From positions 1-55,098 of the forward strand of contig JASMFB010000002.1 of assembly GCA_030751995.1 (NCBI GenBank): DNA of 55,098 nt. The letters are read 5' to 3'. Each line of letters begins with the position of its first letter. Within the stretch, counting starts at the first letter, position 1. A program made the translations under genes and the position numbers. Below the pieces are notes generated by a model, which was given only the letters and a program-made list of their open reading frames with translations, made no database searches and had not been told where the DNA came from. This document shows positions 6,894 through 51,181 of this stretch, piece after piece. The DNA comes from Candidatus Thalassarchaeaceae archaeon. GTDB lineage: Archaea > Thermoplasmatota > Poseidoniia > Poseidoniales > Thalassarchaeaceae.

Positions 6894-8150
6894 TCAGAGA
6901 TGCTCAAACTCAAAGCGCTTGACTACTGAGCGGTATTCAAGCAGTTTGGCCTCAACATAGACGTCCTGTCCGACTGCCAATTCCATGGTATTAGGCATGC
7001 GAACACCGACGCCGGTGTCGTCAACCTCGCCAATGCAAGTATTGCCACCCCGAAATTCGTCACCCAAACCTATTCCGATGGTTTTCTCCATTTTGTCAAT
7101 TCTCAATGTGAAATCGAAGACTTGATCGCTCAAACTTTCGATGTATCGACGCTTGTCGCCAAAGAGTTTCAGTGTATCGAGATGAGCGGCCACGTCGACA
7201 ATGCTTCCGCTAGTGGAAGGGGTCGGGTGTTCAGGTTCCGGTTCGGGAACGGATTCCTCGGGAACATCCTCTTCTTCAGCAGGAGCAGATGAGTCACTTC
7301 TATCCATCAGCATTATGACTTTGAATTCCTCGAAATTAATGACTCCATCACCATCGGCATCGGCCTCATTGAGCAACGCTAGAATTTCCTCAGGAGTCAT
7401 GCGTTCACCAAGGGTGTTCATCATGAGATGCAATTCCTGGATGTCGATGACACCGTTGCCATCGCGATCAAAGAGATTGAATGCTTCTTGCATTTTGTCG
7501 GAAGGTTTCTCCTCAATGGCTTCAGGTTCTGGCTCAGGCTCAGATTCCTCAACAACTTCTTCCGGTTCTGTGGCAGAGATTGAGAAACTCGTTGTCGCCA
7601 TCATGTCATGGGCATTGTTTCGGAATAGTCGGGCTTCGTAATCGCCAGCAACGTACTGTTCTCCAACAAAAGTCACAGAACCTGCGATTTTTCCTTCGCC
7701 TGGTTGTTGGCCTCCCCCGACATACAACCAATTGGCCCCATGTTCTCCATTTGGGCTACCTGCGGGAAAGATGCCAATCCACGCATGGGGGCTACCCGAA
7801 CTTCCTGTGAACCCAACGGTGAATGGTGAGCCTTCTTCAGGTTCTGCTGTATCAACGAAGAGTGTAGCACCCTTCAGTGACTCTGCCCTTTCTCTGACTT
7901 CACCCTCTAGTCTCTGGGCCTCAGCAGCCACCTCAACGGACTTTTCCTTGGCCATACTCTCGATTCGATCCAATTCAGCCATGGCACGTTCCCGGGCTGC
8001 ATTCTGAACCACCGTTCCCGGTAGGCGTGCTATGAGTTGCTCCAGATGGTCATTGACAAGAGGGCGAATCGTGTCGATTTTTGCCGCTGGGTCTTCCAAA
8101 GCATCATGATATGCTTGGAAGGCAGCAATGAAGTCAGACTCTGAGACCAT
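6894..8150 (-). CDS. Multidomain protein with a calmodulin-like EF-hand pair (418 aa)
   Basis: Two canonical 12-residue Ca loops, DRDGNGVIDIQE and DADGDGVINFEE, lie at aa ~218-282 (nt 7305..7499). They are flanked by PE-rich acidic linkers. There is an N-terminal helical region, a beta-rich middle domain (AWIGIFPAGS...YEARLF) and a C-terminal beta domain. Confidence 0.85.
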   Translation of the reverse strand: MVSESDFIAAFQAYHDALEDPAAKIDTIRPLVNDHLEQLIARLPGTVVQNAARERAMAELDRIESMAKEKSVEVAAEAQRLEGEVRERAESLKGATLFVDTAEPEEGSPFTVGFTGSSGSPHAWIGIFPAGSPNGEHGANWLYVGGGQQPGEGKIAGSVTFVGEQYVAGDYEARLFRNNAHDMMATTSFSISATEPEEVVEESEPEPEPEAIEEKPSDKMQEAFNLFDRDGNGVIDIQELHLMMNTLGERMTPEEILALLNEADADGDGVINFEEFKVIMLMDRSDSSAPAEEEDVPEESVPEPEPEHPTPSTSGSIVDVAAHLDTLKLFGDKRRYIESLSDQVFDFTLRIDKMEKTIGIGLGDEFRGGNTCIGEVDDTGVGVRMPNTMELAVGQDVYVEAKLLEYRSVVKRFEFEHL

Positions 8151-15141: not shown

Positions 15142-15291
15142 GACATTGCCTCGGCGGCCTCGCCACCCACCCACTCTTCATAACCGCTTCGCTCGCGTAC
15201 ACGAGATTTTTCAATGCAGTGACACGAATAGAAGGCGATGGTGAATCAAAAGCACGGTAGCGAGGCATGTCGGAAGAATGCTTAACTTTCA

Positions 15292-16539
15292 ATGGATTCT
15301 CTCTCCCTCATGGGCGGAGATAAATCGGTTGAAGCCGCCATGAACCTTTCGAGTCCAATCTCTGAAGGAAACCAACGAAAGGATGGTTATTGGGCGAATT
15401 TGAAGGGGGTTCCGCTCCCGGTTTCTGCATCCGATTTGGAACGGCACACCTACTGCCCCGTGTCGTGGCAATTGTCGAAAGCAGGCGTCAGTGGAGAAGG
15501 TGAAGCGATTGAGAAAGGCATGGTTGCGCACGACAAAATTCATTCAAAGATGCAAGAATTCAAGCGCTCTGAAGATCATGCATCACGTGAATTGGTGATT
15601 TGGTCCTGGTGGATTACAGTATTATGTGCACTTTCTGCTGATTCAGCAGCTTTCTTCTTCGTTGGTGAAGGAGTGATTCCCGAGGAATTCATTCAGGATA
15701 TGGGTCGATATCTCATCATGTTGGCTGTCGTTTGGCTTGTGTTAGCCATCATGCTCATCTCCCTACCTTGGCGACGATGGTTGGGGCGGCCCTTCGGATT
15801 GGCCCAGCCTCCACTAATCGATAGTAGTGGATTGCAGAGTGAAAAAATGATGTCTCCATTTGAACCTGAATACAGCACTGAAAATGATAGTGACTTTGGC
15901 AAAGGTGGAGTCACAGAGGCTCGATTGTTGTTGGCTTCAATTGCAGTTGCATTACACGGTTTGGCGATTTACTGGGGGCAAAATAGAACCATTCTGACAT
16001 TTTCTCTCATCGTGGCTACATTGGCATGGTTGCTGTTCACAGCATGGCAATTGCACAGAGTACTCACCTCGGAACGAGAAGCAGGAGATGCAAGAGAAGA
16101 TGCTGGATTGGCAAAGGATGACATCTTAGCATACAGTGATGATGCAGGAGAAAGTGCTGCGTTGCTCGTCGATGAAGAAATTGGTGTGCGTGGACGACCA
16201 GATCAAATTGTGAAGATTGACAATCAATTTATCCCAGTCGAACAGAAGACTGGCAAGATTCCCAAAGAACCCCATGATAGTCATCGGATGCAATTGCTAG
16301 CCTATCTTCACCTAGTGAGCAATACGACTGGTACGATACCAGATTATGGAATTCTACGCTATGGAGGTGAGGCTCTGTTCACAGTCCCGTGGGATGATTT
16401 GGCAAGGGCTGATTTGACTAATTCAATACAAGAAATTCAGCGCCTCATGGTTGAAGGCGGGGCACAGCGAAACCACGAGAGGCCTGGTAAGTGTCGCAAT
16501 TGTTCGCGACGGAAGATGTGTCCACAGAGTTTGGTCTGA
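15292..16539 (+). CDS. Cas4-family (DUF83, PD-(D/E)XK) nuclease with a four-TM-helix insertion
   Basis: C55 (HTYCPVSW), D304 (GRPDQIV), E317-x-K319 (PVEQKTGK), Q334LLAY338 and C401-X2-C404-X5-C410 are all present. Four hydrophobic helices lie between aa ~101 and 254. The start may instead be M7 (15310) or M17 (15340). Confidence 0.8.
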   Translation: MDSLSLMGGDKSVEAAMNLSSPISEGNQRKDGYWANLKGVPLPVSASDLERHTYCPVSWQLSKAGVSGEGEAIEKGMVAHDKIHSKMQEFKRSEDHASRELVIWSWWITVLCALSADSAAFFFVGEGVIPEEFIQDMGRYLIMLAVVWLVLAIMLISLPWRRWLGRPFGLAQPPLIDSSGLQSEKMMSPFEPEYSTENDSDFGKGGVTEARLLLASIAVALHGLAIYWGQNRTILTFSLIVATLAWLLFTAWQLHRVLTSEREAGDAREDAGLAKDDILAYSDDAGESAALLVDEEIGVRGRPDQIVKIDNQFIPVEQKTGKIPKEPHDSHRMQLLAYLHLVSNTTGTIPDYGILRYGGEALFTVPWDDLARADLTNSIQEIQRLMVEGGAQRNHERPGKCRNCSRRKMCPQSLV

Positions 16540-17163
16540 TTAGTCAAAGTCGACCGTGGGTGTACATTCTTCCGGATTTTCTGGGAATGCTAGACAGGGT
16601 CGAATCACCGTCACGCGAAGCACCCAAGAATCTTGGAAATCAAGTAGGCCAACTCCTGTATCCGTACCCATGCCACGACCATCTACTGTCAAGCGCCATA
16701 GACCACTTTCACAGGGATCCAAGTTGCAATCCAATTCTGTTCGTGTCTGCGGATAAGAGCCGTTGTCTGCCATCACTTCGTAAATCGGATTAGATGTATC
16801 ACAATTGGAGCCGCTGTCGTCACACGACAATAGTTCAACATGGACATAACGCTGATCTGAATCCCCGGCATAATAATTGACAGATGTTTGGAAATTGATG
16901 ATGATTTCCTGAACTGTGTGATCAATCGAAATCTGTTCGGTCATCGTTTTCTGAACTTGGGTAGGAAGCGCTCCAGTGCCATCGATAACGAATGTGTGTG
17001 ACAAATCGTAGGGTGTACTCATTTCGCGGACCTCGGGGAATCCCCGGGCACTTTCCATCATTTCTCGTCCAATCACTAGGGAGAGGCATCCAGGCATAGC
17101 CATCGTTACGAAAAGTAACGCCATGATGGCGCTCATCGTTTTTTGACTGCGCAAGACGGGCAT
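16540..17163 (-). CDS. Secreted Cys-rich protein, probable lipoprotein (207 aa)
   Basis: The signal MPVLRSQKTMSAIMALLFVTMAMPGC has a lipobox-like Cys. The ORF-track N-terminus (to 17391) overlaps the upstream gene and was trimmed to the ATG at 17163. Confidence 0.65.
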   Translation of the reverse strand: MPVLRSQKTMSAIMALLFVTMAMPGCLSLVIGREMMESARGFPEVREMSTPYDLSHTFVIDGTGALPTQVQKTMTEQISIDHTVQEIIINFQTSVNYYAGDSDQRYVHVELLSCDDSGSNCDTSNPIYEVMADNGSYPQTRTELDCNLDPCESGLWRLTVDGRGMGTDTGVGLLDFQDSWVLRVTVIRPCLAFPENPEECTPTVDFD

Positions 17164-17169
17164 CGATGT

Positions 17170-17196
17170 CTCCCCTACCCCTTCGGTGTAGGGGAG
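17170..17196 (-). terminator. GC-rich stem-loop (9-bp stem CTCCCCTAC/GTAGGGGAG) between the 896-aa gene and the lipoprotein gene
   Basis: The arms are perfect, with 2 further C-G pairs inside the loop. A CCCCCC/GGGGG palindrome follows at 17215..17225. Confidence 0.4.
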
Positions 17197-17227
17197 GGCA
17201 TTTCTGTCTGACGGCCCCCCGGGGGTG

Positions 17228-19918
17228 TCACTCTTCCTTCTTGCGACGGCGGACGCCACGTCGCTTTGAACTGGAATCTTCCTCGATTGATTCTGATTCG
17301 GGCTCAATCTTAGTGGAAGGTTCAGGTTCATTGAGGATGGTGAAATCACTGCTCGCAGAACGGACTTCATTTCCAACCACGGTGTTGTCAATCATTGCAT
17401 CGACATTGACCTGCTGCCCCGGTAGAACTCCATCTTCGCCTGTCAATTCAAAGATCTCTTCCCGGTAGTCAGCATCCGAGGCAGTTAACTCAACATCCGC
17501 ATCCGACAAATGTCGACGTGATTCAACATCACCAAGGAATGAATCTAAATCGTGACTTGGCATTTCGTCCATGGCTTCACTCAGTTCAGTGGAGGCCACG
17601 GTATCCTCGTCTTCGGGGTCTACCGTGTCAGATGCTTCCGTGGCGAGGATATCTGTCTCCTGGGTATCGAAATAAGCCTCTGCTTCTGTGATATTTTCGT
17701 CCCACTCTCCTTCCCATTGCTCCTCGTTGAAACCGAGAGAACCTGCGTGCTTGTCGAAGCCCTCGTGACCCCGGACAATTTCGCTATCATCTTCTTCTTC
17801 AATCTCAGGCTCAACTTCAGACACTTCTGGTAGTGACTTGAATTTGCGTTCACGGCGTGAATAATGGGTGCTGATATCTTGCTCAGAACCACAATATGGG
17901 CAATGTTCGAGCATCGAAGGAATGGTAGAATTGCAATCGAGGCAATCGTGGAATTTTGCCCTACCGACTCGAAGATCGAAATCACAGTGTGGACAAATGT
18001 CTTCATCGCCCTCAATATCTCCATCACATGCTGGACAAAGGTCGTATGTTTCCCGATCGGCATCCGCCAATCCACGTCGAGTGAGAACAACGGCACCAAT
18101 CAATGCAATCAAAGCTACAAACCCGGCAACTGCAAAGAGAAGAATTGACTTAGAGTCGTCCTCTTCACCAACATCTACACCTCCTTCACGCTCTACGTTC
18201 CATTTCTTTGCGTGGGGTGTCACGCTGGTTCCATGAGGTGTGATTGAGAGTTCAATTTCCCCGGGCACCCCCACATCAATCTCACAGCGGATGGTCGCTT
18301 GTCCACCGGTTTCAAACACGAGTGGAGTTGTGGTATCCAGAGTTGTTCCAGTTGCGCGATCGACACAATCGAAGGTTTCCTCACCTGAACCGATATCTGC
18401 GACGGCGTCTATTGAATAGACATAGGTGTATCCAGCGTAAAGTGGTGGTCCGGCAGACCAACCTTCCGTGCCTAGAAGAAATCTTAGTGTAAGGTCAGAA
18501 ATCAGGCTGACTGAAGTGGTTGCAACGTTATCTGTTTCCAATCGATCGTAAGATCCTGGCGTCTTGGTCCAACTTGCCTCAAAGGGAATATCACGTGTTA
18601 CCCCTTCTGCAATAGCAGTGAATGTTGCACTGATTTGGCCCTGATTCCCAGTGTTTGAAGGTGGAATTGAGAGTGCCTTGGTTTCAATAAATTCTCCATC
18701 AAAGGTGGCCGTCAAATCTCCGGTTGCAGTTACCATACCAACATTCTGTAATGTCACTGTAAATGTAATCATGTTACCCGGCGTGGTTGTCGGTGTCTGC
18801 GGTGAGGCCCCCGTGACGACAACGTTGGGTTCCTGATAGATGGTGAGAACGGCTGATTGCAGATTATTGAAGGGATTTGACTGGGGGACATTCCATGATG
18901 AATCGATTTCCAAATCTAGGTGTATGTCGCCTGGTGTAGGATCTGTCAAATCACCGGAAGTGATGGAGACAGAATACTCAGCAAAGGCGTCGGCATCAGT
19001 GAATGATAGATTGACGATTTCCAAAGTTATTCCGTTCTGAATACGGATTTCGAGTGGCGCGGAGGTCGTGCCAGTGCCTCCATCTCGTGCGATGGTGCCA
19101 CTCACCGTCCAAGGACCGGACAAACCGGGGTCTGCCACGACAGTGGGGCCGTCAGCATGTCGGTAATCAGGCAATGTATCGATAATCATAGAACGGGATT
19201 GAGAATTATCAGCAGTGGTCGATTCAACGATATTATCTCCACTGTCTGCATTGACAACGCCGATGATGTCGTATGTACCTGCAGCCGGTGCTGTCGCAGT
19301 TTGGTTCATCCACACACTGTCTCCTGCTTGCAGAGAAGAGACAGAGAGAAGATTGGCACTTCCTGCAACTGTCAGGTCAAGATGGCTGGTAGGGGCATCC
19401 GCATGTCCTGAATTTTCAACCTTGATTTGGATTTGAATCGAATCGCCCTCGTGTGCTCCTGAAGCGGGAGACAATTCAAAATGTGCAAATCGAAGGTTGG
19501 CCAAACCCTCGACATCGAAATCATGGGAGATGATTTTTGGATCATCGTTGTGATTGACTCGAATAACCAGTGTCTGTTCGCCATCGCCCCATGCCAAATT
19601 CGTCCAAACAAAGTTGACATCTTCAAACGAACCTGCATCGATGTCTACAAATTCTAATGCTGAGGGGTTGCCCATCTGGAAGCTGTTCTTGTGGAACTCA
19701 ACAGCGACATCTTCTGCGATGATATTCGCTACATTCTGTAGTGAAAGTGTGAATGTGACGTCCCCTCCTTCAACGGCAGTTGAAGGGCTCATCGAAAGGC
19801 CCTCAGTGCTGAAAGCGACGTCCCCGGACAATTCAGCGCTAACTGAACTGGAGATTGCCAATAACGGCGCAAGGAAGAGGAGAGCGCACAGGATATGTGC
19901 TAGCGGGGGCCGCTCCAT
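17228..19918 (-). CDS. Surface protein (896 aa): signal peptide, CARDB-like beta-sandwich repeats, one TM helix, cytoplasmic double zinc ribbon and an acidic tail
   Basis: The signal peptide MERPPLAHILCALLFLAPLLAISSSVSA starts at ATG 19918. Repeats follow the pattern GGDVTFTLSLQNVANIIAEDVAVEF. The TM helix is ILLFAVAGFVALIALIGAVVLT. Two zinc ribbons follow: CPACx10CPHC and CLDCx11CPYC. Confidence 0.8.
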   Translation of the reverse strand: MERPPLAHILCALLFLAPLLAISSSVSAELSGDVAFSTEGLSMSPSTAVEGGDVTFTLSLQNVANIIAEDVAVEFHKNSFQMGNPSALEFVDIDAGSFEDVNFVWTNLAWGDGEQTLVIRVNHNDDPKIISHDFDVEGLANLRFAHFELSPASGAHEGDSIQIQIKVENSGHADAPTSHLDLTVAGSANLLSVSSLQAGDSVWMNQTATAPAAGTYDIIGVVNADSGDNIVESTTADNSQSRSMIIDTLPDYRHADGPTVVADPGLSGPWTVSGTIARDGGTGTTSAPLEIRIQNGITLEIVNLSFTDADAFAEYSVSITSGDLTDPTPGDIHLDLEIDSSWNVPQSNPFNNLQSAVLTIYQEPNVVVTGASPQTPTTTPGNMITFTVTLQNVGMVTATGDLTATFDGEFIETKALSIPPSNTGNQGQISATFTAIAEGVTRDIPFEASWTKTPGSYDRLETDNVATTSVSLISDLTLRFLLGTEGWSAGPPLYAGYTYVYSIDAVADIGSGEETFDCVDRATGTTLDTTTPLVFETGGQATIRCEIDVGVPGEIELSITPHGTSVTPHAKKWNVEREGGVDVGEEDDSKSILLFAVAGFVALIALIGAVVLTRRGLADADRETYDLCPACDGDIEGDEDICPHCDFDLRVGRAKFHDCLDCNSTIPSMLEHCPYCGSEQDISTHYSRRERKFKSLPEVSEVEPEIEEEDDSEIVRGHEGFDKHAGSLGFNEEQWEGEWDENITEAEAYFDTQETDILATEASDTVDPEDEDTVASTELSEAMDEMPSHDLDSFLGDVESRRHLSDADVELTASDADYREEIFELTGEDGVLPGQQVNVDAMIDNTVVGNEVRSASSDFTILNEPEPSTKIEPESESIEEDSSSKRRGVRRRKKEE

Positions 19919-20051
19919 GAGTTTAGGAGAACAGCCAAGGCACTTCAAACCTGCTTCCGAAATCGCCTGATAACCCCATGCAAGGGACGGCGTTGCGGGC
20001 CCCATTGGAAAGCCTTGAAGGGCGGTGCATATTGTGGGAGGATTGGTGCCG

Positions 20052-21836
20052 ATGCTTTCTCGCCGTGTCTTTCTCTCCACTTTTGTGGTGATTCTGCTCT
20101 GTGCTGTACCACATGGAGCGTGGATGACAGTCGATGCATCGGCAGGTCGGAGCGATGATTTGGACTTCAGTGGCGGCCCCAATGCAGGTCAGGTTGTCTC
20201 TGGAACGTACACGATTCTCATGACCAATGTGGTAGACATGGATTACATCAATATCGAAGTATCCGATGGATCAGTGTGGACTTCAATTGCTAATGTGACA
20301 AATGCGCCTTGGTTGTCTGCTTGGGACACCAGTTCACATAGTGATGGGGATTATCAATTGAGAATTGAAGGGACCTTGGCCAATTCAACCACGACAGGTT
20401 GGGTGGTGAGTCCGACCTTCACCATCGACAACACAGCACCCACCGGTCTCACGTTGAGTACATCTGGGGCAGTGATTGGAGACGGTTCTTCGACAATTAG
20501 CCGGGCATGGTTCACCACAGATGAGGCTGGAACGATGAATTTCGATTGGAATGGCTCAGATTCGCACCTCTCACATGCAACACTCACGAATGTTCCAGGT
20601 TCAGGAAATCCACCACAAGATGGTCCGGGTACAATTCTCAACTCCTGGGCATGGTCTCCTGGTGACTTAACAGAAGGAACATGGAATTCCGTTCTATCGG
20701 TGTTTGATGAAGGCGGAAATTCAGCGCAGACCTCCATTCACATCGGAATTGATCGAAGTGGACCTGAAGTAGGAACGCCATCGCTATCGGTGGCCACGGG
20801 GAGTTGGAGTGATGCAACAACCCTGATTTTCAACGGTTTATCCAGCGGAGCAACAGACAATGATGGATCTGGGATTACCACCTACCACGTACGCGATAGT
20901 ACTGATGAATGGGCAGATATTGGGTCTGCAGGTTCTGGGTCGATGAGTTTGGACGAAGGTGTGCGCACGATTCAATTTCGTGCCGTGGATCGAGTCGGTA
21001 ACATCGGTGATTCACTCGACGTGACGATGATGATTGATCGTTCTGCACCTGTGGCAGGGGGATGGATTCTGCCGGAACTTACAGATTCCCTGAGTGGACA
21101 AGTGGCGGTCAGTATCGATGCAACCGATGCAAATGCCGGAATTGCCACCACCTCATGCAGTATTGAATACGGATTTGATTCCAATGGCGCGGGTTCAACG
21201 CCTGACATTTCTTCCGATTGGCTCAGTGTAGGTTCAGGGACCTCAAACTCACTCTCCGCTGCAATCGATTGGTCTACTCGTGCCGGGCAATTCCTTTCTC
21301 TACGTTCAACACTCGTCGATACGGCAGGAAATACGGTCACCACTCCGGCTTCACATTTCCTCATCTTACCGGGGCTTGACTTCTCCATCTCCGATGCATC
21401 ACTGGATCGCCTCGTTGTACGAGCTGGCTCGCAAGATACGGTCCAACTTGAAGCCAATATCGACACCAACGAAGTCTACCCCGGGAGCGTCGTTGTTCGA
21501 GTTGAAAGTGCCCCAGCGAGCCGTGATTCAATGACTGAATGGACAACCTTGAATTCGGTTGCAATCAGTACGGGGTCTCTCATGGATCAACAAGAGCGAG
21601 TTGTTGTGGACATCACATTGCTGACAGCGGGTGAATTTGACATACGCGTCATCGTTGACCCTGATGACTCGATTTCTGAACGTGACGAGGGTAATAATGA
21701 GGCATTCCTCCTCATCGGAGCAGCGAACCCGGAGGTCATCGGCTCGGTGTCTGGCTTTGCACCAGACCTAGTGCTCTTGCTTCTTGCAGGCTTGTTTGCC
21801 AGTCGAGTACTCAAACGTCGGGAATCGGCGTCTTGA
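20052..21836 (+). CDS. Secreted Ig-like repeat protein with a C-terminal TM anchor (594 aa)
   Basis: The SD GGGAGGA lies 10 nt before the ATG at 20052. The signal is MLSRRVFLSTFVVILLCAVPHGA. Modules end in IDNTAPT, IDRSGPE and IDRSAPV. A CARDB-like end (DEGNNEAFLL) is followed by SGFAPDLVLLLLAGLFASRVLKRR. Confidence 0.8.
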   Translation: MLSRRVFLSTFVVILLCAVPHGAWMTVDASAGRSDDLDFSGGPNAGQVVSGTYTILMTNVVDMDYINIEVSDGSVWTSIANVTNAPWLSAWDTSSHSDGDYQLRIEGTLANSTTTGWVVSPTFTIDNTAPTGLTLSTSGAVIGDGSSTISRAWFTTDEAGTMNFDWNGSDSHLSHATLTNVPGSGNPPQDGPGTILNSWAWSPGDLTEGTWNSVLSVFDEGGNSAQTSIHIGIDRSGPEVGTPSLSVATGSWSDATTLIFNGLSSGATDNDGSGITTYHVRDSTDEWADIGSAGSGSMSLDEGVRTIQFRAVDRVGNIGDSLDVTMMIDRSAPVAGGWILPELTDSLSGQVAVSIDATDANAGIATTSCSIEYGFDSNGAGSTPDISSDWLSVGSGTSNSLSAAIDWSTRAGQFLSLRSTLVDTAGNTVTTPASHFLILPGLDFSISDASLDRLVVRAGSQDTVQLEANIDTNEVYPGSVVVRVESAPASRDSMTEWTTLNSVAISTGSLMDQQERVVVDITLLTAGEFDIRVIVDPDDSISERDEGNNEAFLLIGAANPEVIGSVSGFAPDLVLLLLAGLFASRVLKRRESAS

Positions 21837-36223: not shown

Positions 36224-38962
36224 TCACAGACCGATACTACGACGGCGGTTGCGCCAAATCGTTGTCAATATTGTGACGCCGAGAACGCTGATGACCGACC
36301 AAGATACGATGTTCCAAGTCTCTGAGGACAAACCGAATACACTGTCGTCGAGAATGGACCGGACGGTCATATCCACAGGTTGTGCAGCCACAGGTGCACT
36401 CTCTGGGGTGACGATGAGGGTGAATTCAAATTCATCCTCTACAGGCATCTGAACAGGGGGTTTGACTCGAACTCGAATCGTCGATGATTCCCCTGGCTGT
36501 AGCAGCAGATCGGTTTGCTCGATATCGATGGTCCAGCCCCTCAATCCTTCAGTCGATGAAATTTCAATTTGTTCTTCGATGTTGCCACTGTTGGTAATCT
36601 GTACCATGAAATCGGTGAATTCCGGATGGGTTGTATTCTGTATTGCGCCACCTTCAACCATGACATCTAGATCGTGTACAGTGGCGATTGAGACCACGAT
36701 GTCCACACAAGAAGGTGAGGCTGTGTTTCGCATCGATGCGGCACATACACGTACCACACCAGCTTCTCCGTTCATACTCTGATCCATGCCCATTACTGAG
36801 AGTGTGATATTGGCGTAATATGTTCGTGAATCGTCAGGGAGTGTGAATACACCCGGTGCCAATTCTTCTGTGTCCGCACTTAGCGATGTTGAAATCGTTG
36901 AATCCATTCCTTCGATGGTGAATAGAGCCTGTTCGACATAAGGTGATGTTCCGATATCGCTGAAGAGCATTGCAACTGTCGTCTGACCGCCGGGTGGCAT
37001 GGTGATGCTCATGGAATCAGGCGCCCCTTGTGGGTCAGCCAAAATCAATTGCATCATGTAATCATAATTTGAGACGCGCGCTGTCACGGTCTTCGTGAAT
37101 TCATTGGATGGAGAGGAAACAATGTTGACTTTCATCTGAACCTGTAGGTAATCGCCCTCATCCTCACTCTGGATGTGTATTCGCAAGTACACCTGTTGTG
37201 ACTGGCCGGCATTCAAGGAAATCTGTGTCACTTCATTGTCTGAATTATCCACATAGATGGATTGCCATGAAGGTGTAGCACAGGAACCTGGCTGATTCGG
37301 GTCACAGGCACGCAATCTGAAAGAATCCTGAACGTTCCCATTGTTGTGAACTGTCAATGGGAAGTCGATTGTCTGGTCGCTCCGTCCGGTTTGATCAGTT
37401 GAGAGGACGGATCCATCAACATCGTGGCGCTCGGCGACAGATACCTGAAGATCATCGGTAATCTCGATGGATGAATCACCACTACTAGTCACGGTGAGGG
37501 TGATGGTTACTGTGTCATCTGCGAGCGCATCTAGCGGAACGAAAACCTCCACGGACACTTGCGTCTGATGATCCTGTTGCGGCTCGTGCTTACCCAACAA
37601 GGACACCGTGGATGAACTCAATGTGACCGTCCACCCACCGGGGACGGGTGTGTGTCCGATGGCAAAGGTGTCAGGGCCATTGCCTTGATTGGTTATTGTC
37701 AACCCAGTAGATTGTGATGTTCCTGGTTCAACATTGTTGAGATAGTTGCTACTGAGGGAAGCTGAACCACCGTATGATTGGCCCACCGTCACTTGAAGAA
37801 TAGCATAACATCGCTCGTTGTTTCCATCCAAGCCACGAATTCTAATCTCGGTGGTACTGTCTGCGGGCATGCTGTCGTCAGGAGAAACGTCGAATGAGAT
37901 GGCAGCCTCTCCATTTCCGTTATCGTAAGGCAAACTTCGCTGACTGACTTCAGGAGTAACCCAGTTGGCTTTCGGGCCAGATTTTCCAAAGCCGACGGTC
38001 CAATCACTGTTGCCCGCATTGGATAGCATGAAATTGCCTGATGAAGAAGCCCCGGGTGCAATTGTCATCGAAGTGGGGGAAACCGTGGCTTCACACTCGT
38101 GAAGTTCTGGTATGTTCAGTGTAACTGAGAGATTGTCTTGTGCTGCATCTGTACCAGGGGGTGGCGCGGGTGCGGTAACGGTTGCACGGGTGATGAAGCA
38201 ATGAGAACCTGCTTCTGTCTGTTCTCCATCTGGAACCTCGACGGTGACCGTAACTGTTTCCTCATCGTCGGCATTCAATTGAACCTGAGTAGGATCTACT
38301 GTGGCCTCCAGGCCATCCGAACGACAACTGGAATCTTCATCCATCTCAATGGATATTGTCTCCTGAGTCTGCCCTGTATTCTTGACTGTGATCGACCATT
38401 CTACCTCTTCGGCACCATTGTCATAATTCTTTGTCGCTTGGCTGGATGTGAGTTCGACACCCTGAGCTGCGTTACCTGAACCCTCGCCAAGGGTGGTTGT
38501 CACGACAACATCCGCTTGAGCCGGTGCGCCCGGTGTTCCAGCCGGCGAGGCTGTTGCAGTCACTGTCGTGTCACATTCATCTGCAGTCTGTTCCCCCTCA
38601 GTCACGTTCACCGTGAGTGTCACTTGCTCGTTGGAATTGGGTGAAATGGTACCCGATACCTGCTCAATCGCACTGGTGTAACCCTGACAACCTCCGGCCT
38701 CTTGGCTGGTCGCCAATTGAACTGTGATGTCCTCATCGCCCGTGTTTCGAACGGTGATCGTATACTCTGCAGGTTCCCCTGGAGATGCCTCCTTAGAGGA
38801 TGAATCAGATGTCAGTGTGACATCGGCTTCGGCAGCAGCAAGTGGGCTTGCAAGCACGAATAACATCAGTGCGACAACCGAAAGGGTGCGTCGACGCGCG
38901 GGTGGGCGCATGAGGGGGCCACGTAGTGGCTCCCTCAAAAGGCCCCCTGCTTCTCGATTCAA
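36224..38962 (-). CDS. Surface protein with ~7 CARDB/NEW3-like beta-sandwich repeats and a C-terminal TM anchor (912 aa)
   Basis: Repeat pattern: AEYTITVRNTGDEDITV, EWSITVKNTGQTQETISI, TGLTITNQGNGPDTFAI, FPLTVHNNGNVQDSF and FMVQITNSGNIEEQIEI. The Arg-rich signal is MRPPARRRTLSVVALMLFVLASPLAAA. The TTG start at 38962 follows the SD GAGGTGA and overlaps the protease stop (TTGA). The alternative ATG is at 38911. Confidence 0.8.
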   Translation of the reverse strand: MNREAGGLLREPLRGPLMRPPARRRTLSVVALMLFVLASPLAAAEADVTLTSDSSSKEASPGEPAEYTITVRNTGDEDITVQLATSQEAGGCQGYTSAIEQVSGTISPNSNEQVTLTVNVTEGEQTADECDTTVTATASPAGTPGAPAQADVVVTTTLGEGSGNAAQGVELTSSQATKNYDNGAEEVEWSITVKNTGQTQETISIEMDEDSSCRSDGLEATVDPTQVQLNADDEETVTVTVEVPDGEQTEAGSHCFITRATVTAPAPPPGTDAAQDNLSVTLNIPELHECEATVSPTSMTIAPGASSSGNFMLSNAGNSDWTVGFGKSGPKANWVTPEVSQRSLPYDNGNGEAAISFDVSPDDSMPADSTTEIRIRGLDGNNERCYAILQVTVGQSYGGSASLSSNYLNNVEPGTSQSTGLTITNQGNGPDTFAIGHTPVPGGWTVTLSSSTVSLLGKHEPQQDHQTQVSVEVFVPLDALADDTVTITLTVTSSGDSSIEITDDLQVSVAERHDVDGSVLSTDQTGRSDQTIDFPLTVHNNGNVQDSFRLRACDPNQPGSCATPSWQSIYVDNSDNEVTQISLNAGQSQQVYLRIHIQSEDEGDYLQVQMKVNIVSSPSNEFTKTVTARVSNYDYMMQLILADPQGAPDSMSITMPPGGQTTVAMLFSDIGTSPYVEQALFTIEGMDSTISTSLSADTEELAPGVFTLPDDSRTYYANITLSVMGMDQSMNGEAGVVRVCAASMRNTASPSCVDIVVSIATVHDLDVMVEGGAIQNTTHPEFTDFMVQITNSGNIEEQIEISSTEGLRGWTIDIEQTDLLLQPGESSTIRVRVKPPVQMPVEDEFEFTLIVTPESAPVAAQPVDMTVRSILDDSVFGLSSETWNIVSWSVISVLGVTILTTIWRNRRRSIGL

Positions 38963-41900
38963 GAATTCACCTCTTCAACGAAGGTACCGACATCTGCTTG
39001 GCAATTACGACATACAACAAGGGCGGCTGCGCTGCACGCAAATCCTGATTGATGATATCGAGCGCCGCAACCGGGACATGCTCGACGGACGCCAGAAATT
39101 GGTTTGTTACAACCCCAACACACAACTTCTGGCGTTGTTTTCTGACTCTGAGGAGGGGGGGTCGCACCGGAGAATGCAGCAGGAGGGGGTGGGGCCAAGG
39201 TTGGAGAGGCCTGATTCCCCTTCAACCGAACGATGAGCATACCGGCAACGACAAGTCCGACCACGATGAATATTAGCAAGAAGACAACTGTCATGGTTGT
39301 CCCACTTCCACCCTCTGTTCCCAGAGATGGATCATTGGCGACATCCAATATTGCGGAATGTGTGGAACCGTGCATATTGGAGTTTTCAAAACTGAGTGAA
39401 ATAAGATTCTCGCCGGGTGAATCGGGCACGATACGGACACGAAGACCCTGTGATTCACCGATGGCCAAATCCACAATATCTGAATCTTCGACTTCAGCGG
39501 TCCATCCTTCGGGGGCCTCGATGATGACACGTTCCTGAACGACGGTGTTACCTACATTCAATATTTCAAAATGCAACAGGGAGGATTGGTCGGCCATTGA
39601 TTCTTCGATTGAAAGAGTCGTCCAGATGACATTGGGTTCTGCCGCGACTGGAATCAGGGCTCCTGCGGAACGCTCGATACCATCAGCATTGATGGTCAAG
39701 CCGATTTCTGGTTGCCAGCCTGCCATGGCAAAGTTGGGTGCAGTGATGATGCAATTGGCTTCTGACGAGCCACCAGCAGCAATCTCTGACACCGGATCAC
39801 AAATCCCTTCCCAAGTGGAATCGGGCAAATCGATACTCAGAACGGGTGTCCAAGCTGAACTCCCATCGTTGATAATCAGCCAGTGGCCTACGAAACCAGG
39901 TGTACCGGTGGGAATTTCTGACAATGCTGCACCCTGTGAATCAGAAATTCCAGTGAATGTCAGAACGGGTTTGGCTTCCTCGACGACATCCAATTGACCT
40001 TCCCACGTAATTCGATAACCGCCCTGTGTTGTCAGATGAAGTGTTAACGAACCCCCCACTGCTAAGCCATTTCCTTCAAGGCCGAGCATATAGGATGCGG
40101 ATTCACCAATCGGGATTGTGATTGAATTTAAGCCAGCGATTACCGACCAACCTCCGGGCCTTGCGTCGACGTTGGGATAGAGTGTCAATTCCGTGTTGCC
40201 TAGATTCGTAATTGTGTATTGAAGGTAAACGGTTGAATCTGGGCGAAGAACGCTTGGAGTGGATTCTGCTTCGATGATTGCGGAATCGAACTCAATGACC
40301 TCCATCTGAATCGAATAGGACCACGATTGAGTGGGGTCAATTTGGGAAGTAACGCGCAGGATTGCCTCCATGTTCTGACCTGCGGGCGGAGGAGTGCCAA
40401 GTTGCGGTGTCACAGTCATTTCGACGGTGCGAGCGCCGTTTAGCGGAATTGCTCCCGTTGAACCAGAAGCGGTGCCTATTGAAGAACCAAGATTGTCTAG
40501 CCCCACCCACCATCCAATGGGCGATTCGATGAACAGATTGTAGCCCTGTGCACCATTACCCTCATTGAGGACATCGACCTCAAACATTGTCGTAGTAGAT
40601 GGATGAACTTGCAAGACCGAGAATGGCGCTTGGAAAGAAATCTCAGGCAAGAGGGGGACATCGAGAGTTAGAGTCAGGGGGAAATCGATGTTGTTGTCAT
40701 CATCGGTCGCTGTGATTGTCAATTGATACAATCCAGGGGCAGGGGATTCATCGTGCACCATCGTGAAACCAAGCGACGATGATTGTGAACCGTTGAGTGC
40801 GAAACTCGTCTGAGTGAAAGATGTGAACCACGCGGTCATCATCTGTCCATTATTGATTCTCATTGGTGTTGATGCACTGATTGATGCATTGGTAGATATG
40901 AGTGCAGTGTTGCGAATTTCCAATTGCCATGAGGTGCTAGTCTGGCTAGCTTCTTCAATCTCTAGGACAGTCTCTGATGTGGAAACACGTACACCGGGAG
41001 CACTGACAGCAACTGGGATTTCGAAGAGATTGTTGTCTTCGTCAATCTCCTCTTCAAGATGGTCGGGATCAATGACGATGGTAATCGCCTGTGTGCCCTC
41101 GTTGATGGGTGTCCAATCCCAAGTTGCCCAGCGAATCATTCCGGGCCCGATATCGATGGTAACTTCACCAAGATTCTGGGTGCCAGCAATAGCTTCGATG
41201 CGAAGACCGTCCGCACTACCGCCACCCTGATTTTCAATCTGAATTGAAATCTGGCAGACTTCGTTCACCTGAGGAATAGAAGTTGACAATTGGAAGGACG
41301 TTGGGATAGGAAGTGGGTCGCTCCTCAAATCATTGACCCCGGCCCCTCGGACTGCGAGAGCGAATGGTTGATCGCTACGCTGTCCACCGTGTGCGACATC
41401 GGTGATTTGAACTGTCCAAACTCCCGAATCTGCTTGATCGATAAGGACGACTTCGACGTTGTTCAAATCATCGGCATCTCCACCTGTAGTCGAACGACCA
41501 TTGGCGAAATCATTGCCCTTGTATATCGTCCCATCAGGCGCAGTGATGACCATATCGAGATTGTTTTGCAATTGTGTGGACGACCATGTGCTGCCTGGAT
41601 AATCAGACCACGTCAGAACGGCTTTGAATGGCGTATTTCCACGACTGAGATTGAATTGGTATTCTCGAGTTTGTCCGCTACGAACCGTGTTGCGATCATC
41701 GACCCAAACACCAGTATCTGTTCCGGGCATGAGGGAATTCGCGAGATTTACCCTGCCCCAGCCCTCATTCATGTTGGGTATATCTCGAGAACCGGTGTCC
41801 TCTGCACCAAGAATGAGCATTCCCTTGATGAGGGCGCCCTGTGGTGAGGGGCGACCTGCCACTTCCATCAGATATTCACGAATGAGAACAGAGGCACCTG

Positions 41901-43479
41901 CTGCATTGGGGGCAGCCATTGAAGTGCCACTGTATTCCAAATACCACTGGCTGGACCAAGTTGCGCCACTCGTATCTGTAGCATCTTGACTGAGGCAAGA
42001 GCGGACCCAAGAGCCTGGTGCGGTGACATCGGGTTTGATGCGACCATCATCGGTAGGCCCCCGACTACTGCCATCAGAGAGAGTGCTTGGAGCGCCACCA
42101 CCGCGATTGTGATGATTGCCCACGGCAACGGCGTTCTTGGCAGTTGCAGGTGGTGTAATCGTATCTGAATCAGGGCCGTCATTGCCAGCAGAAATCAGTA
42201 CGAGCATTCCATTGTAGGACCAAAACTGATCATACTGGTTTGTTCGACTGTCGGTATCCTCACTGCTGGTGGTATATTCACCATAGTAGCCATCCATTCC
42301 CCATGAGTTTGTGTGGATGTAGGAATTGCCTTCGTAGGCCTTTCTGATGAGGGTGTCCATACTGACGCCGCCGAAATTACCGCTGTCATCATCCTCCATT
42401 GCTTGGAATCGTAGACTGGCTTGTGGAGCCACACCTGCATATCCACCCCTGCTGCCGTTGCCCAGAACAGTACAAGCGACATGCGTGCCATGCCCTGAAT
42501 GTTCATCCTCGGTTGAGGAATCACCCCAAATGACAGACTCAACGTGTTGAATGCGACCATCAAAGTCACCGTGATCTCGATCGATCCCTGAATCAGCGAC
42601 AGTGACCGTGTGGCCACTACCATTCAATCCAACGACGAAGTAATTCGAGACATCGTCAGCCCTCATATGACCCACTGCAACGTTATTGTCGATGCTGAAG
42701 ATTGGTTCAAGGCTGAGCCAAGATAGGGCGGGTTCAGCAGCCACCGTGGCAATATCCTCCAGTGAAAGCAGGCCATGATGCCGGCCAGTGTCAATCGGAC
42801 GATATGATGTCAGGTAAGTGGCTGCTGTTTGGTCCAAATCACCCATTAGACCGGGCAATCGAACATGGTCCTGTGGAGTGGAATAATCCGCCAATCTCCA
42901 ACCCGAGAGTTGAACTGCGGTTGAGGGAGGAGCGTCCAGTGGGAGACTAGAGGCTTCAGAGAGAAGGTCACTGACGTGGTGGTCGACCATGAAGGCCAAC
43001 GGAAGTGGGTGAACGGCAGCCACGACGGGTAGTTCGGCAGCTGCAGCGATGGCTTGAGGGTGGCCCTGAATCAGGAAGCCCGATGGAGGAATATGGGCAC
43101 GAATTTCAATGCCTGGTAATTCGGTCAACGCCACACGACCTGGCCATAGACCCACATCTCCATCGATGAGGACCAGAGCGATATCTGTTCGAATTGTGGT
43201 CAAAATCTCGGGAACCTCGGCATCAGATTGCAAACCGTCGATGGTAAACATCCCGATATGGGTGTCAGCGGTGGTTTCCCGAATTTGCTCTTCGCCATCC
43301 CAACTCGCAGAAGGATGTGCGCTTCCAATGCTGTCGGGATCCGGGTGGAGTTCGATTCGTTCAATGCCCGATGCCCCCTCTTCTTCAACTTCGGGAATTG
43401 ATGAAGAAGGGGTCGAAAATGGGGATACTACCGACAGTAATAGGATGCCGAGAATACAGAATACAATTCGATGCCGCAT
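38959..43479 (-). CDS. Subtilisin-like serine protease (peptidase S8) with a long repeat stalk, a TM helix and a cytoplasmic zinc ribbon (~1506 aa)
   Basis: Catalytic motifs in track numbering are VADSGID (D324), HGTHVA (H358), SAGNDG (N461) and GTSMAAP (S548). A P/PPC-like domain is LTWSDYPGS...NNLDMVITAPDG...NNVEVV. Six or more CARDB-like repeats are followed by the TM helix VVFLLIFIVVGLVVAGMLIV and the ribbon CWGCx9CPGC. The ATG at 43479 gives the signal MRHRIVFCILGILLLSVV. Confidence 0.9.
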   Translation of the reverse strand: MRHRIVFCILGILLLSVVSPFSTPSSSIPEVEEEGASGIERIELHPDPDSIGSAHPSASWDGEEQIRETTADTHIGMFTIDGLQSDAEVPEILTTIRTDIALVLIDGDVGLWPGRVALTELPGIEIRAHIPPSGFLIQGHPQAIAAAAELPVVAAVHPLPLAFMVDHHVSDLLSEASSLPLDAPPSTAVQLSGWRLADYSTPQDHVRLPGLMGDLDQTAATYLTSYRPIDTGRHHGLLSLEDIATVAAEPALSWLSLEPIFSIDNNVAVGHMRADDVSNYFVVGLNGSGHTVTVADSGIDRDHGDFDGRIQHVESVIWGDSSTEDEHSGHGTHVACTVLGNGSRGGYAGVAPQASLRFQAMEDDDSGNFGGVSMDTLIRKAYEGNSYIHTNSWGMDGYYGEYTTSSEDTDSRTNQYDQFWSYNGMLVLISAGNDGPDSDTITPPATAKNAVAVGNHHNRGGGAPSTLSDGSSRGPTDDGRIKPDVTAPGSWVRSCLSQDATDTSGATWSSQWYLEYSGTSMAAPNAAGASVLIREYLMEVAGRPSPQGALIKGMLILGAEDTGSRDIPNMNEGWGRVNLANSLMPGTDTGVWVDDRNTVRSGQTREYQFNLSRGNTPFKAVLTWSDYPGSTWSSTQLQNNLDMVITAPDGTIYKGNDFANGRSTTGGDADDLNNVEVVLIDQADSGVWTVQITDVAHGGQRSDQPFALAVRGAGVNDLRSDPLPIPTSFQLSTSIPQVNEVCQISIQIENQGGGSADGLRIEAIAGTQNLGEVTIDIGPGMIRWATWDWTPINEGTQAITIVIDPDHLEEEIDEDNNLFEIPVAVSAPGVRVSTSETVLEIEEASQTSTSWQLEIRNTALISTNASISASTPMRINNGQMMTAWFTSFTQTSFALNGSQSSSLGFTMVHDESPAPGLYQLTITATDDDNNIDFPLTLTLDVPLLPEISFQAPFSVLQVHPSTTTMFEVDVLNEGNGAQGYNLFIESPIGWWVGLDNLGSSIGTASGSTGAIPLNGARTVEMTVTPQLGTPPPAGQNMEAILRVTSQIDPTQSWSYSIQMEVIEFDSAIIEAESTPSVLRPDSTVYLQYTITNLGNTELTLYPNVDARPGGWSVIAGLNSITIPIGESASYMLGLEGNGLAVGGSLTLHLTTQGGYRITWEGQLDVVEEAKPVLTFTGISDSQGAALSEIPTGTPGFVGHWLIINDGSSAWTPVLSIDLPDSTWEGICDPVSEIAAGGSSEANCIITAPNFAMAGWQPEIGLTINADGIERSAGALIPVAAEPNVIWTTLSIEESMADQSSLLHFEILNVGNTVVQERVIIEAPEGWTAEVEDSDIVDLAIGESQGLRVRIVPDSPGENLISLSFENSNMHGSTHSAILDVANDPSLGTEGGSGTTMTVVFLLIFIVVGLVVAGMLIVRLKGNQASPTLAPPPPAAFSGATPPPQSQKTTPEVVCWGCNKPISGVRRACPGCGARYHQSGFACSAAALVVCRNCQADVGTFVEEVNS

Positions 43480-43553
43480 ACGACTCCCCAATGGTGGGGG
43501 TTGCCGAGACCACTTTCTATCTTCCCTACTCTTGACGACACCTATGGTGTCGT

Positions 43554-44228
43554 TCACAGCCAACTTCGCTCTGCATCGAGGGTATGACTCTCGAAGGTAT
43601 ATTCGCCAACTTCAATGATCCAAGATTGCTTGGAAACGGCGCCATCATAGTTGTCGTAATCAAGTGTGACCTCAATGTTGTAGAGTTCCCAAATTGATTC
43701 GCCGGTAATCATCAATTCAAGGGTGTCGCCAGCAATCGATGTGTGTGCTAAGAGAGAACCCACCTCAAAATGAGTGGAATTCAGAATTTCGCCATCCTGA
43801 TTGGAGAAGGAAGCATCGATTTCGACGTTTGCGATAGGGCGGCTACCATAGTTGTGGAGTTCTATGAGAACGACGTGGCCGGGACCGCCCTGTTTGTAGA
43901 CCACATCTACCTCGACAGCATCTCGAGGAACTACCCAGAAGCCGAGTGCGAAAATACTGAACATCAAGGCAGCCATGAATACTGAAGCGAGGACAACGCG
44001 TGTCGGCGTTACAATGCCGACAACTTCACGCGCCCGGATGTAGGCCTGCTCGGCAATTTCTCGTTGTTCCTCCGACGGTTCAAAGTCGTCCTTGAACACC
44101 TTTTTCTTCATCCGTTTGATTCGATCTGTCAGACTAATCTTAGAATCGTCCGCCGCTTCAAGTTCGGGATTGTCGGGGTCACCAACCAGCGTGTACATTC
44201 CCTCAATCTCTTCGTCCTTCTTCGCCAT
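43554..44228 (-). CDS. Type II membrane protein with an external beta-rich domain (224 aa)
   Basis: MAKKDEE... acidic/basic cytoplasmic N-terminus, the TM helix VLASVFMAALMFSIFALGFWVV and a ~130-aa external domain. The SD GGGGTGAT overlaps the stop of the upstream 1468-aa gene, with a 4-nt spacer. Confidence 0.65.
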   Translation of the reverse strand: MAKKDEEIEGMYTLVGDPDNPELEAADDSKISLTDRIKRMKKKVFKDDFEPSEEQREIAEQAYIRAREVVGIVTPTRVVLASVFMAALMFSIFALGFWVVPRDAVEVDVVYKQGGPGHVVLIELHNYGSRPIANVEIDASFSNQDGEILNSTHFEVGSLLAHTSIAGDTLELMITGESIWELYNIEVTLDYDNYDGAVSKQSWIIEVGEYTFESHTLDAERSWL

Positions 44229-44232
44229 GAAA

Positions 44233-48639: not shown

Positions 48640-48669
48640 GTTGGTATACACTGCCGCCCGCTCCGCCTA

Positions 48670-48686
48670 AAGGGTCTCCGACCCTT
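48670..48686 (-). terminator. Stem-loop AAGGGTC-TCC-GACCCTT between the PKD protein gene and the giant ORF
   Basis: A perfect 7-bp stem in the 80-nt intercistronic spacer. Confidence 0.35.
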
Positions 48687-48719
48687 GTGCGCGAGGGACT
48701 GGCATTCACAATGGTGCTC

Positions 48720-51131: not shown

Positions 51132-51181
51132 AATTAACTCGCCCGATTCTTTCACGTTTGAAGGTCGCCCATGACAGTGTA

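Follow-up and report, generated by a model that had tools for sequence, protein, structure and literature searches.

A predicted membrane-embedded, CRISPR-independent Cas4-family protein in Poseidoniales archaea

In CRISPR adaptation, Cas4 serves as a soluble accessory protein. What would a Cas4-family protein do in a cell membrane, next to a ribosomal protein gene and with no CRISPR system in sight? The question is raised by a stretch of 55,098 nucleotides (nt) from a Candidatus Thalassarchaeaceae archaeon (GCA_030751995.1, contig JASMFB010000002.1, positions 1 to 55,098), which is called the window below. On its + strand, the ORF listing and translation of the window give an intact open reading frame (ORF) of 415 codons at 15292..16539; residue numbers throughout are those of this 415-amino-acid (aa) ORF. 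An original prediction, made from the nucleotide letters, had described the product as a stand-alone Cas4-family nuclease interrupted by a four-helix membrane insertion, and every peptide it quoted is found in the translation at the residue number given for it. The gene very probably encodes an integral-membrane, CRISPR-independent member of the Cas4 family, with a PD-(D/E)XK nuclease domain and a predicted iron-sulphur (Fe-S) cluster. A constitutive, membrane-anchored DNA-end nuclease facing the cytoplasm is the best overall reading.

A Cas4 domain with an intradomain membrane insert

The window protein scores above the curated cutoffs of Pfam Cas_Cas4 (PF01930; 39.9 bits against 22.7) and PDDEXK_1 (36.7 bits against 22), the two profiles by which the Cas4 assignment was to be checked. 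It passes the equivalog cutoff of NCBIfam TIGR00372 (cas4) marginally, with 65.4 bits against 65; with the Cas4 models of PADLOC the best score is 75.9 bits. These single-sequence matches span only aa ~285-411. The Cas4 hallmarks read from the sequence (C55, D304, E317-x-K319, Q334-x3-Y338 and C401-x2-C404-x5-C410) are present in the correct order and conserved. Together with H80 they make up ten residues that do not vary among 24 Poseidoniales homologs (to 50% identity) or among 19 relatives (to ~27% identity), except that E317 is nearly invariant in the latter. W59 and G76 are invariant in both homolog alignments too. The motifs thus follow the RecB-type order of His, motif II Asp, motif III ExK and QhxxY. 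With the catalytic residues conserved in this way, nuclease activity is probable, and C55 would bind an Fe-S cluster with C401, C404 and C410.

The extent of the domain becomes visible once the insert is removed. The hydrophobic insert was cut from 20 diverse family members and the resulting profile was used to search the PDB. Its best match is Cas4 8d3l_I (E = 7e-10), aligned in one stretch from profile position 10 to 229 of 230 and over residues 4-202 of 8d3l_I. This alignment takes in YCP..W at the N-terminus, the G...H helix and, at the C-terminus, C-x2-C-S-x4-C, where the window protein's Cys triad lies on CNNCSLQSIC of 8d3l_I, and it places the four cysteines as in solved Cas4. It thereby supports indirectly that C55 reaches the triad, as does the invariance of the four cysteines. 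A single-sequence PDB search gave weak partial matches only (E = 0.2-0.4). A Foldseek search with the structure model of the window protein returned the Cas4 chains of 8d3l and 7mi4 at the top (E = 4e-5 to 4e-4); MGME1 and Dna2 came next. P0144, the smallest relative, which has two transmembrane (TM) helices, matches PDDEXK_1 end to end, across its hairpin. It is strongly supported that the ORF encodes a complete Cas4 domain, split between the metal-ligand His helix and the first beta strand by two TM hairpins. Its N-terminal part, aa 46-95 (15427..15576, + strand), holds YC55P..W59 and the G76-x3-H80 helix running into the first TM helix, as judged by conservation, the 8d3l_I alignment and the model. 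The PD-(D/E)XK core, aa 278-392 (16123..16467, +), holds GRPD304, E317-x-K319 and Q334-x3-Y338 and is delimited by the Pfam, NCBIfam and PADLOC matches, Foldseek and residue invariance. The C-terminal Cys triad C401-x2-C404-x5-C410 (16492..16521, +), invariant and aligned to 8d3l_I, would supply the cluster ligands together with C55.

Four hydrophobic segments lie between YC55P and the core: aa 101-125 (TM1), 136-160 (TM2), 207-231 (TM3) and 234-256 (TM4). The original prediction spoke of four strongly hydrophobic helices. Their number stands; as to strength, the 19-residue Kyte-Doolittle maxima of TM1 to TM4 are 1.66, 2.81, <1.6 and 2.04, that is, two strong helices, one moderate helix and TM3 below the strict threshold. 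All four are detected with a 17-residue window at a threshold of 1.4, the looser setting being needed for TM3. The loop between the two helix pairs, put at ~50 aa, measures 51 aa.

In an AlphaFold2 model built from the 24-homolog alignment (mean predicted local distance difference test score, pLDDT, 68; predicted template modelling score, pTM, 0.58), the four segments form two long helical hairpins outside the nuclease fold. An unbroken helix, aa 71-122, leads from the Cas4 His helix into TM1, and another, aa 234-270, leads from TM4 toward the first beta strand. The loop between the hairpins has a pLDDT of <50 over aa 168-205.

Helices were also counted, as hydrophobic peaks from the N-terminal Cys to the GRPD motif, in 298 full-length relatives. 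Twenty of these have 2 helices, 262 have 4 and 13 have 8, so that the number is even in 295 of 298, a fraction that overstates independence since the sequences share ancestry and whose effective weight is that of three even size classes. The three relatives with odd counts have lengths inside or near the even classes and are probably threshold misses. The even number postulated for the window protein therefore holds for it (four) and for nearly all its relatives. With an even helix count both halves of the domain, the N-terminal Cys and the C-terminal triad, come to lie on the same side of the membrane. The charges follow the same division. On 50%-identity representatives, the density of lysine plus arginine per residue is 0.16-0.26 on the nuclease side versus 0.05-0.09 in the intra-hairpin loops (7-12 aa), in all three classes. 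This positive-inside pattern and the position of the model helices outside the nuclease fold speak for TM hairpins rather than for a buried soluble core, which had been named as the alternative. Hydropathy, charge bias and the modelled hairpins all point to an integral membrane protein that crosses the bilayer an even number of times. Placed by hydropathy and the positive-inside rule, the nuclease would face the cytoplasm, with both termini inside (N-in/C-in).

A profile was built from the hairpin nearest the nuclease and run against the other hairpins of the family. Their median score is 24 bits, as against 0.8 for reversed and -0.5 for shuffled sequences. Because these scores are far above the controls, the hairpins are taken as homologous, duplicated repeat units. 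Against the family hairpin profile, the window protein's hairpin 2 reaches 26.8 bits (reversed, 1.9) and its hairpin 1 reaches 5.5 bits; by these scores hairpin 2 is the canonical family unit and hairpin 1 a divergent one. DUF2339 was considered as a source of the hairpin module and rejected; it matches one of 15 eight-TM relatives at 29.7 bits, below its cutoff of 33.6.

Hairpin 1 (15592..15771, +), comprising TM1 and TM2, was delimited by hydropathy, the model and conservation (0.61), and it has invariant W104, W106, W107, D117, F121 and F123. It is followed by a cytoplasmic juxtamembrane motif, P159-W-R-x3-G-x-P-F-G-L-A-Q-P-P174 (15766..15813, +), with invariant columns, and then by a variable acidic cytoplasmic loop, aa 175-205 (15814..15906, +), which is probably disordered (identity 0.27; pLDDT <50). 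Hairpin 2 (15907..16059, +), made of TM3 with invariant H222 and TM4 with invariant W246, is the part from which relatives align, starting at ~aa 210-240. Within Poseidoniales the mean pairwise identity of the hairpins is 0.60-0.61, versus 0.67 for the nuclease core, and that of the juxtamembrane motif is 0.88, the highest of the protein; the motif diverges in clades further off. Polar residues inside the helices, D117 in TM1 and H222 in TM3, are invariant. These residues, the conserved hairpins and the juxtamembrane motif suggest that the membrane part is more than an anchor.

One relative with four TM helices, P0123 (481 aa), has an extra acidic domain of ~100 aa (residues ~105-205) within the loop of hairpin 1. 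This add-on is predicted to be extracellular, consistent with a hairpin 1 loop that points outward.

Family, locus and partner gene

How widely is this architecture found? One genome per species was scanned with the Poseidoniales alignment, a scan informative on Poseidoniales rather than on other orders, and 220 species-representative genomes of Thalassarchaeaceae (MGIIb) and Poseidoniaceae (MGIIa) carry the gene. In these 220 genomes it encodes one contiguous protein, not two separate genes as an assembly or fusion artefact would have it. A Thalassarchaeaceae metagenome-assembled genome (MAG) matches the window at 89% identity. The closest homologs are ~400-415 aa long, the named ones come from Poseidoniales, Thalassarchaeaceae or Thermoplasmatota MAGs, and databases label them 'Dna2/Cas4 domain-containing protein' or 'CRISPR-associated exonuclease Cas4'. 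When 1.84 billion cluster representatives were searched exhaustively, 860 matches at E <= 1e-3 were obtained; short fragments aside, nearly all of the best 150 have hydrophobic segments.

The matches fall into size classes. Proteins with two TM helices have ~270 aa (one cluster is named Poseidoniia); a class of ~330 aa with four is found in Thermoplasmata and Methanomassiliicoccales; those with eight have ~500-600 aa, one of them named Thermoplasmata. It is strongly supported that the family spans several Thermoplasmatota lineages and carries its homologous hairpins one, two or four times. There is also a single-helix class of ~170-180 aa (P0224-P0269, e.g., P0232, P0242 and P0250) without the N-terminal Cys/His segment, in which an N-terminal hydrophobic helix directly precedes the Cas4 core and the C-terminal Cys triad is present. 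One of these is named Anaerolineaceae bacterium, and by its sequence membrane-anchored Cas4 cores may exist in bacteria also. No relatives were found in the viral contigs searched. Among the eight-TM proteins, P0208 (635 aa; cluster members P0557 and P0558) lacks the N-terminal Cys segment and has ~150 extra C-terminal residues. A Pfam TRAM match (E = 1.5e-15) was obtained for one of the 15 eight-TM proteins scanned and most likely belongs to P0208, judged by its repeated C-terminal sequence.

In Poseidoniales the gene sits at a fixed place. Of 80 loci, 76 have uS2 upstream, 73 have Dus, and 74 have a gene here called orf283 downstream in convergent orientation; the gene order is the same at 49% identity. 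The survey of neighbours and of the insert that the original prediction had proposed thus finds the insert conserved and the housekeeping synteny fixed. Transcribed away from uS2 and toward orf283, the gene is therefore monocistronic. That it is a single, monocistronic and vertically inherited gene in Poseidoniales is strongly supported. In the sampled loci of more distant relatives, the flanking genes are housekeeping genes throughout.

No cas gene or CRISPR array had been seen in the 55 kb, and this was borne out. A repeat search of the window found no CRISPR-like array, and Pfam scans of its gene-like ORFs of at least 150 aa, with short overlapping and cas2-sized ORFs left out, found no cas or defence domains. 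Neither the scanned window nor the homolog loci place the gene with cas1, cas2 or an array, as a CRISPR-associated Cas4 would be. Its position outside CRISPR-cas and outside mobile elements is that of a Solo-Cas4 in the sense of Hudaiberdiev et al. 2017. From PADLOC-DB only Cas4 and DruK models match, by the nuclease core, and the gene neighbourhood holds no other defence-system components; no PADLOC-DB defence system is called.

Outside Poseidoniales the setting is different in one respect. In seven of nine loci, two of the seven reached by way of a search with the partner gene, a gene matching PF14811 ('TPD') directly precedes the four-TM gene in the same orientation, 35-60 bp away. The observation draws on L004 (6191-7996), L006, L007, L008, L009, L090, L094, L096 and L097, and the gene pairs occur in Thermoplasmata, Methanomassiliicoccales and related MAGs. 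In the two exceptions the upstream gene encodes a P-type ATPase or a Metallophos phosphoesterase. Such a phosphoesterase, calcineurin-like and with a Metallophos score of 28.4 bits, fills the slot at L091 (3151-3954) in one Thermoplasmatota lineage; it may be an alternative partner or a coincidence.

The TPD partner has ~250-290 aa, matches PF14811 at E ~ 1e-42 and is named 'C15orf41 family protein' at NCBI. In human, defects of CDIN1 (C15orf41) lead to chromatin bridges between erythroblast nuclei. The human protein has two helix-turn-helix (HTH) domains and a predicted PD-(D/E)XK nuclease domain whose activity is undemonstrated (PMC7261414). The archaeal protein resembles it in its HTH-like N-terminal helices and in a predicted C-terminal PD-(D/E)XK-type TPD...ExK motif, here with the signature KTPD...W-I-E-S-K. 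Its structure model has a pLDDT of 90.6. A fold search of this model against the PDB gave nothing significant (best E = 0.078), the top matches being mostly PD-(D/E)XK nucleases, and sequence searches against the PDB gave no match. The CDIN1-family protein is separate from the Cas4 protein of the window. None of the best 120 of 491 TPD matches is named Poseidoniales. Through the operon link between the two genes, the family of a human disease gene would become accessible in a tractable prokaryotic setting.

Known relatives and proposed function

Among described proteins, Solo-Cas4 (PMC5704561), of which one from Methanosarcina mazei has been studied (PMC12501428), is the nearest. It has the same domain, with N-terminal Cys, His, D, ExK, QxxxY and CX2CX5C, it is encoded away from cas genes, and its suspected physiological role is repair or defence (PMC5704561, PMC12501428). 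Known solo-Cas4 proteins are soluble and have ~170-220 aa, whereas the window protein contains two intradomain TM hairpins (one or four in relatives) and its gene is a core gene, syntenic throughout the lineage. In structure and profile searches it matches best the Cas4 of Cas4-Cas1-Cas2 complexes (8d3l, type I-C; 7mi4, type I-G fusion), with which the residues align; the stand-alone Cas4 structures 4ic1 and 4r5q belong to the same comparison. Identity to solved Cas4 structures is ~20%. Unlike CRISPR-associated Cas4, the window protein has no cas1, cas2 or array context, carries an insert of ~165 residues between the His helix and beta strand 1, and is membrane-embedded. The nuclease domains of RecB/AddB/AdnAB, Dna2, Exo5 and MGME1 share the fold class and are DNA-end-dependent. 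In AddB, Dna2 and Exo5 an Fe-S cluster bridges the N- and C-terminal domain parts. Membership in these families was rejected, since scores are far below those to Cas4; the window protein, unlike these, has no helicase or soluble partner domain.

Zorya is one of the membrane-linked anti-phage systems that pair a membrane sensor with a cytoplasmic effector. Another is Kiwa, with KwaA/KwaB (PMC11785009). A functional analogy with these systems is possible, in that a multi-span membrane module is joined to an activity against DNA at the inner face. Unlike Kiwa and Zorya, the window protein is a single polypeptide without sequence relationship to them and has the context of a core gene, not a defence island.

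The original prediction knew of no membrane-embedded Cas4. In the open-access literature searched no transmembrane Cas4 is described, so this held. The protein is no isolated case and belongs to a large family. TM segments are nowhere mentioned in the Cas4 phylogenomics paper (PMC5704561), and the biochemistry paper on M. mazei solo-Cas4 (PMC12501428) makes no mention of them. A 2026 mSphere paper was rejected as a precedent; it describes a different, soluble Cas4-DEDD fusion. The family is present in public databases under generic Cas4 names and is apparently undescribed. While the Cas4 fold and its chemistry are known, the intradomain insertion of repeated hairpins, the membrane location, the core-gene status and the linkage to the CDIN1 family are new. 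The mixed naming as 'CRISPR-associated protein Cas4' or 'Dna2/Cas4 domain-containing protein' results from a TIGR00372 score that sits at the cutoff (65.4 versus 65), and the automatic 'CRISPR-associated protein Cas4' label is a likely origin of false CRISPR-Cas calls and could inflate CRISPR estimates in Thermoplasmatota MAGs. A conserved solo-Cas4 core gene of abundant marine archaea, in the membrane and without CRISPR, speaks for a cellular role of Cas4 at the membrane, either ancestral or parallel. The strict helix count of 2, 4 or 8 makes a same-side constraint visible and offers a case study of domain insertion followed by repeat expansion.

How might such a protein act? In the model the helices that enter and leave the bilayer are continuous with those of the catalytic domain, and for this reason the nuclease would be kept close to the inner membrane face. 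By analogy with Cas4, RecB/AddB, Dna2 and MGME1, its substrate would be free DNA ends or single-stranded DNA. An intact circular chromosome offers neither. The enzyme would act on DNA ends that arise or arrive at the membrane, through repair, from DNA caught at division or as incoming linear DNA. In other lineages it would share this DNA maintenance with the adjacent C15orf41/CDIN1-like HTH-nuclease. Housekeeping DNA maintenance at the membrane, to which about an even chance can be given, is favoured over entry-stage defence because the locus is fixed, the gene is nearly universal, no relatives turned up in viral contigs or defence islands, and sister lineages have the CDIN1-like partner. Core-gene status and partner point to housekeeping DNA metabolism at least as strongly as to the DNA uptake, entry-stage defence or vesicle DNA processing put forward in the original prediction. 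The two roles need not exclude each other, RecBCD being an enzyme that serves DNA maintenance and defence alike.

A dedicated innate nuclease at the inner membrane face, which digests linear viral or plasmid DNA from its free ends on entry and may be gated by hairpins that sense perturbation of the membrane, is possible but rather doubtful. Cas4-family enzymes in general act on DNA ends, the nuclease would be cytoplasmic and adjoin the membrane, and the continuity of the H80 helix with TM1 in the model would couple membrane and active site. There is also no CRISPR system to be seen in the window, and the nuclease core matches the DruK models of Druantia in addition to Cas4 models. The PADLOC matches are, however, generic and confined to that core. 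In 220 species genomes the gene occupies a fixed housekeeping locus instead of a variable island, no lineage sampled has adjoining defence genes, and the patchy distribution, the viral homologs and any obvious counter-defence signature are missing. Fixity and near-universal synteny across Poseidoniales are likewise unlike CRISPR-Cas and make it very unlikely that the protein is a Cas4 acting in trans for the adaptation of cas1-cas2 modules elsewhere in the genome. A preprint indicates that solo cas4 can contribute to adaptation in some archaea (bioRxiv 10.1101/486738), and the TIGR00372 score is just over its cutoff. No cas genes or arrays lie in the scanned 55-kb window or beside the sampled homologs, though, and a membrane tether would be hard to square with the Cas4-Cas1-Cas2 complex of 8d3l and 7mi4.

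Could the protein lack activity altogether? A catalytically silent membrane anchor, whose Cas4 fold binds DNA or a partner, for example as a chromosome tether, would have a precedent in the non-catalytic exaptation of Cas4 outlined for the TTV1 nucleocapsid protein (PMC4625639), and the PWR..PFGLAQPP loop, being the most conserved part, suggests a binding interface. Such an anchor is improbable given that the complete active site and the four cysteines are kept to ~50% identity, and all but E317 to ~27%. That the architecture is an artefact of assembly, gene fusion or annotation, or that the helices are a buried soluble core, is hardly credible. The architecture is unusual and TM3 falls below the strict Kyte-Doolittle threshold, but the reading frame is intact, the protein is contiguous in hundreds of independent assemblies including the 220 species genomes, the insert is conserved and positive-inside, the hairpin number varies in steps of two helices, and the model keeps the helices outside the nuclease fold.

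Beyond the shared ancestry of the counted sequences, several points weigh against a housekeeping, membrane-anchored Cas4 nuclease. The N-terminal 94 aa alone have no match in NCBIfam, and the N-terminal Cas4 segment is recognisable through its motifs and the family profile, not as a single sequence, so that the conclusion of a whole domain rests on the family profile. The model has moderate confidence, with a pLDDT of 60-74 in the helices and ~50 around the Cys triad, and hydropathy and charge bias are the basis of the topology assignment. The status of a core gene is also compatible with a constitutive anti-virus role. There is no TPD gene in the window and none within 5 kb in 80 Poseidoniales loci, and the partner argument therefore transfers to Poseidoniales only through the homology of the Cas4 proteins.

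Regulation of the nuclease by the state of the membrane is conceivable in the model, because the His80 helix runs into TM1 and TM4 into a helix toward the catalytic strands, which would give a rigid connection. It would go further, and is unlikely, that the hairpin module is a sensor by which curvature or tension of the membrane, at the septum or during virus entry, switches the nuclease on, and that with its CDIN1-like partner the protein forms an ancient archaeal system cutting DNA that is trapped at or enters through the membrane. If true, this system would be the first functional handle on the CDIN1 family.

Start codon and other features of the window

The original prediction took the ATG at 15292 as the start. 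The ATG of M7 (nt 15310) is more likely, since the upstream ATG is not kept in relatives. In an alignment of six Poseidoniales loci the M7 ATG is invariant, while the ATG at 15292 is GTG in two and absent in one. M7 is invariant in the homolog alignment also; most homologs have 403-409 aa and 409 aa is the modal length of the closest ones. The true start is therefore probably M7, and the probable coding sequence of the membrane-embedded Cas4-family nuclease is 15310..16539 (+), of 409 aa, as compared with the listed ORF from 15292. A GCTTAAC box at 15280..15286 (+), whose GCTTA core is invariant across the same six loci, stands 27 nt 5' of M7. It is probably a TATA-like promoter element of a leaderless mRNA, as its spacing fits that usual for the TATA element upstream of leaderless archaeal transcripts. 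At the N-terminus of the product, aa 27-45 (15370..15426, +; D31, G32, W34, G39, LPVSASDLE) form a beta-hairpin extension with invariant or nearly invariant columns in Poseidoniales, modelled as short strands with a pLDDT of 83-93.

The scanned ORFs of the window are housekeeping and cell-surface genes; they include an ABC transporter, glycosyltransferases, an EF-hand protein, a beta-oxidation enzyme, HTH regulators, Dus and uS2, and further CARDB and subtilase surface proteins, KH, RIO1, eIF1A, a Nuo operon, eL15 and FtsZ. The convergent orf283 (16540-17391, - strand) directly abuts the Cas4 gene. Pfam gives no match for it, and its homologs (~260-280 aa) are unannotated. Its product has a hydrophobic N-terminal segment that closes with a lipobox-like AMPGC. 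As the homolog at L001 has 262 aa, the true start probably lies downstream of the listed TTG. Next to it, at 17228-20182 (-), is a gene for a 984-aa CARDB/DUF11 protein, conserved near the locus in 72 of 80 genomes. Its late hydrophobic segment precedes a double zinc-ribbon and a long acidic tail, an arrangement that suggests a surface protein whose zinc-ribbon domain is cytoplasmic.

A 418-aa protein with pairs of EF-hand calcium-binding motifs is encoded at 6894-8150 (-). Calcium-binding families particular to the two Poseidoniales subgroups are mentioned in PMC9258230. The region 38959-51203 (-) consists of very large ORFs of 1534 aa (subtilase and CARDB) and 827 aa (PKD domains), together with ORFs of 236 aa and 1472 aa without a Pfam match. 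The sole short direct repeat of the window, at 48886 and 49018, falls within the 827-aa ORF.

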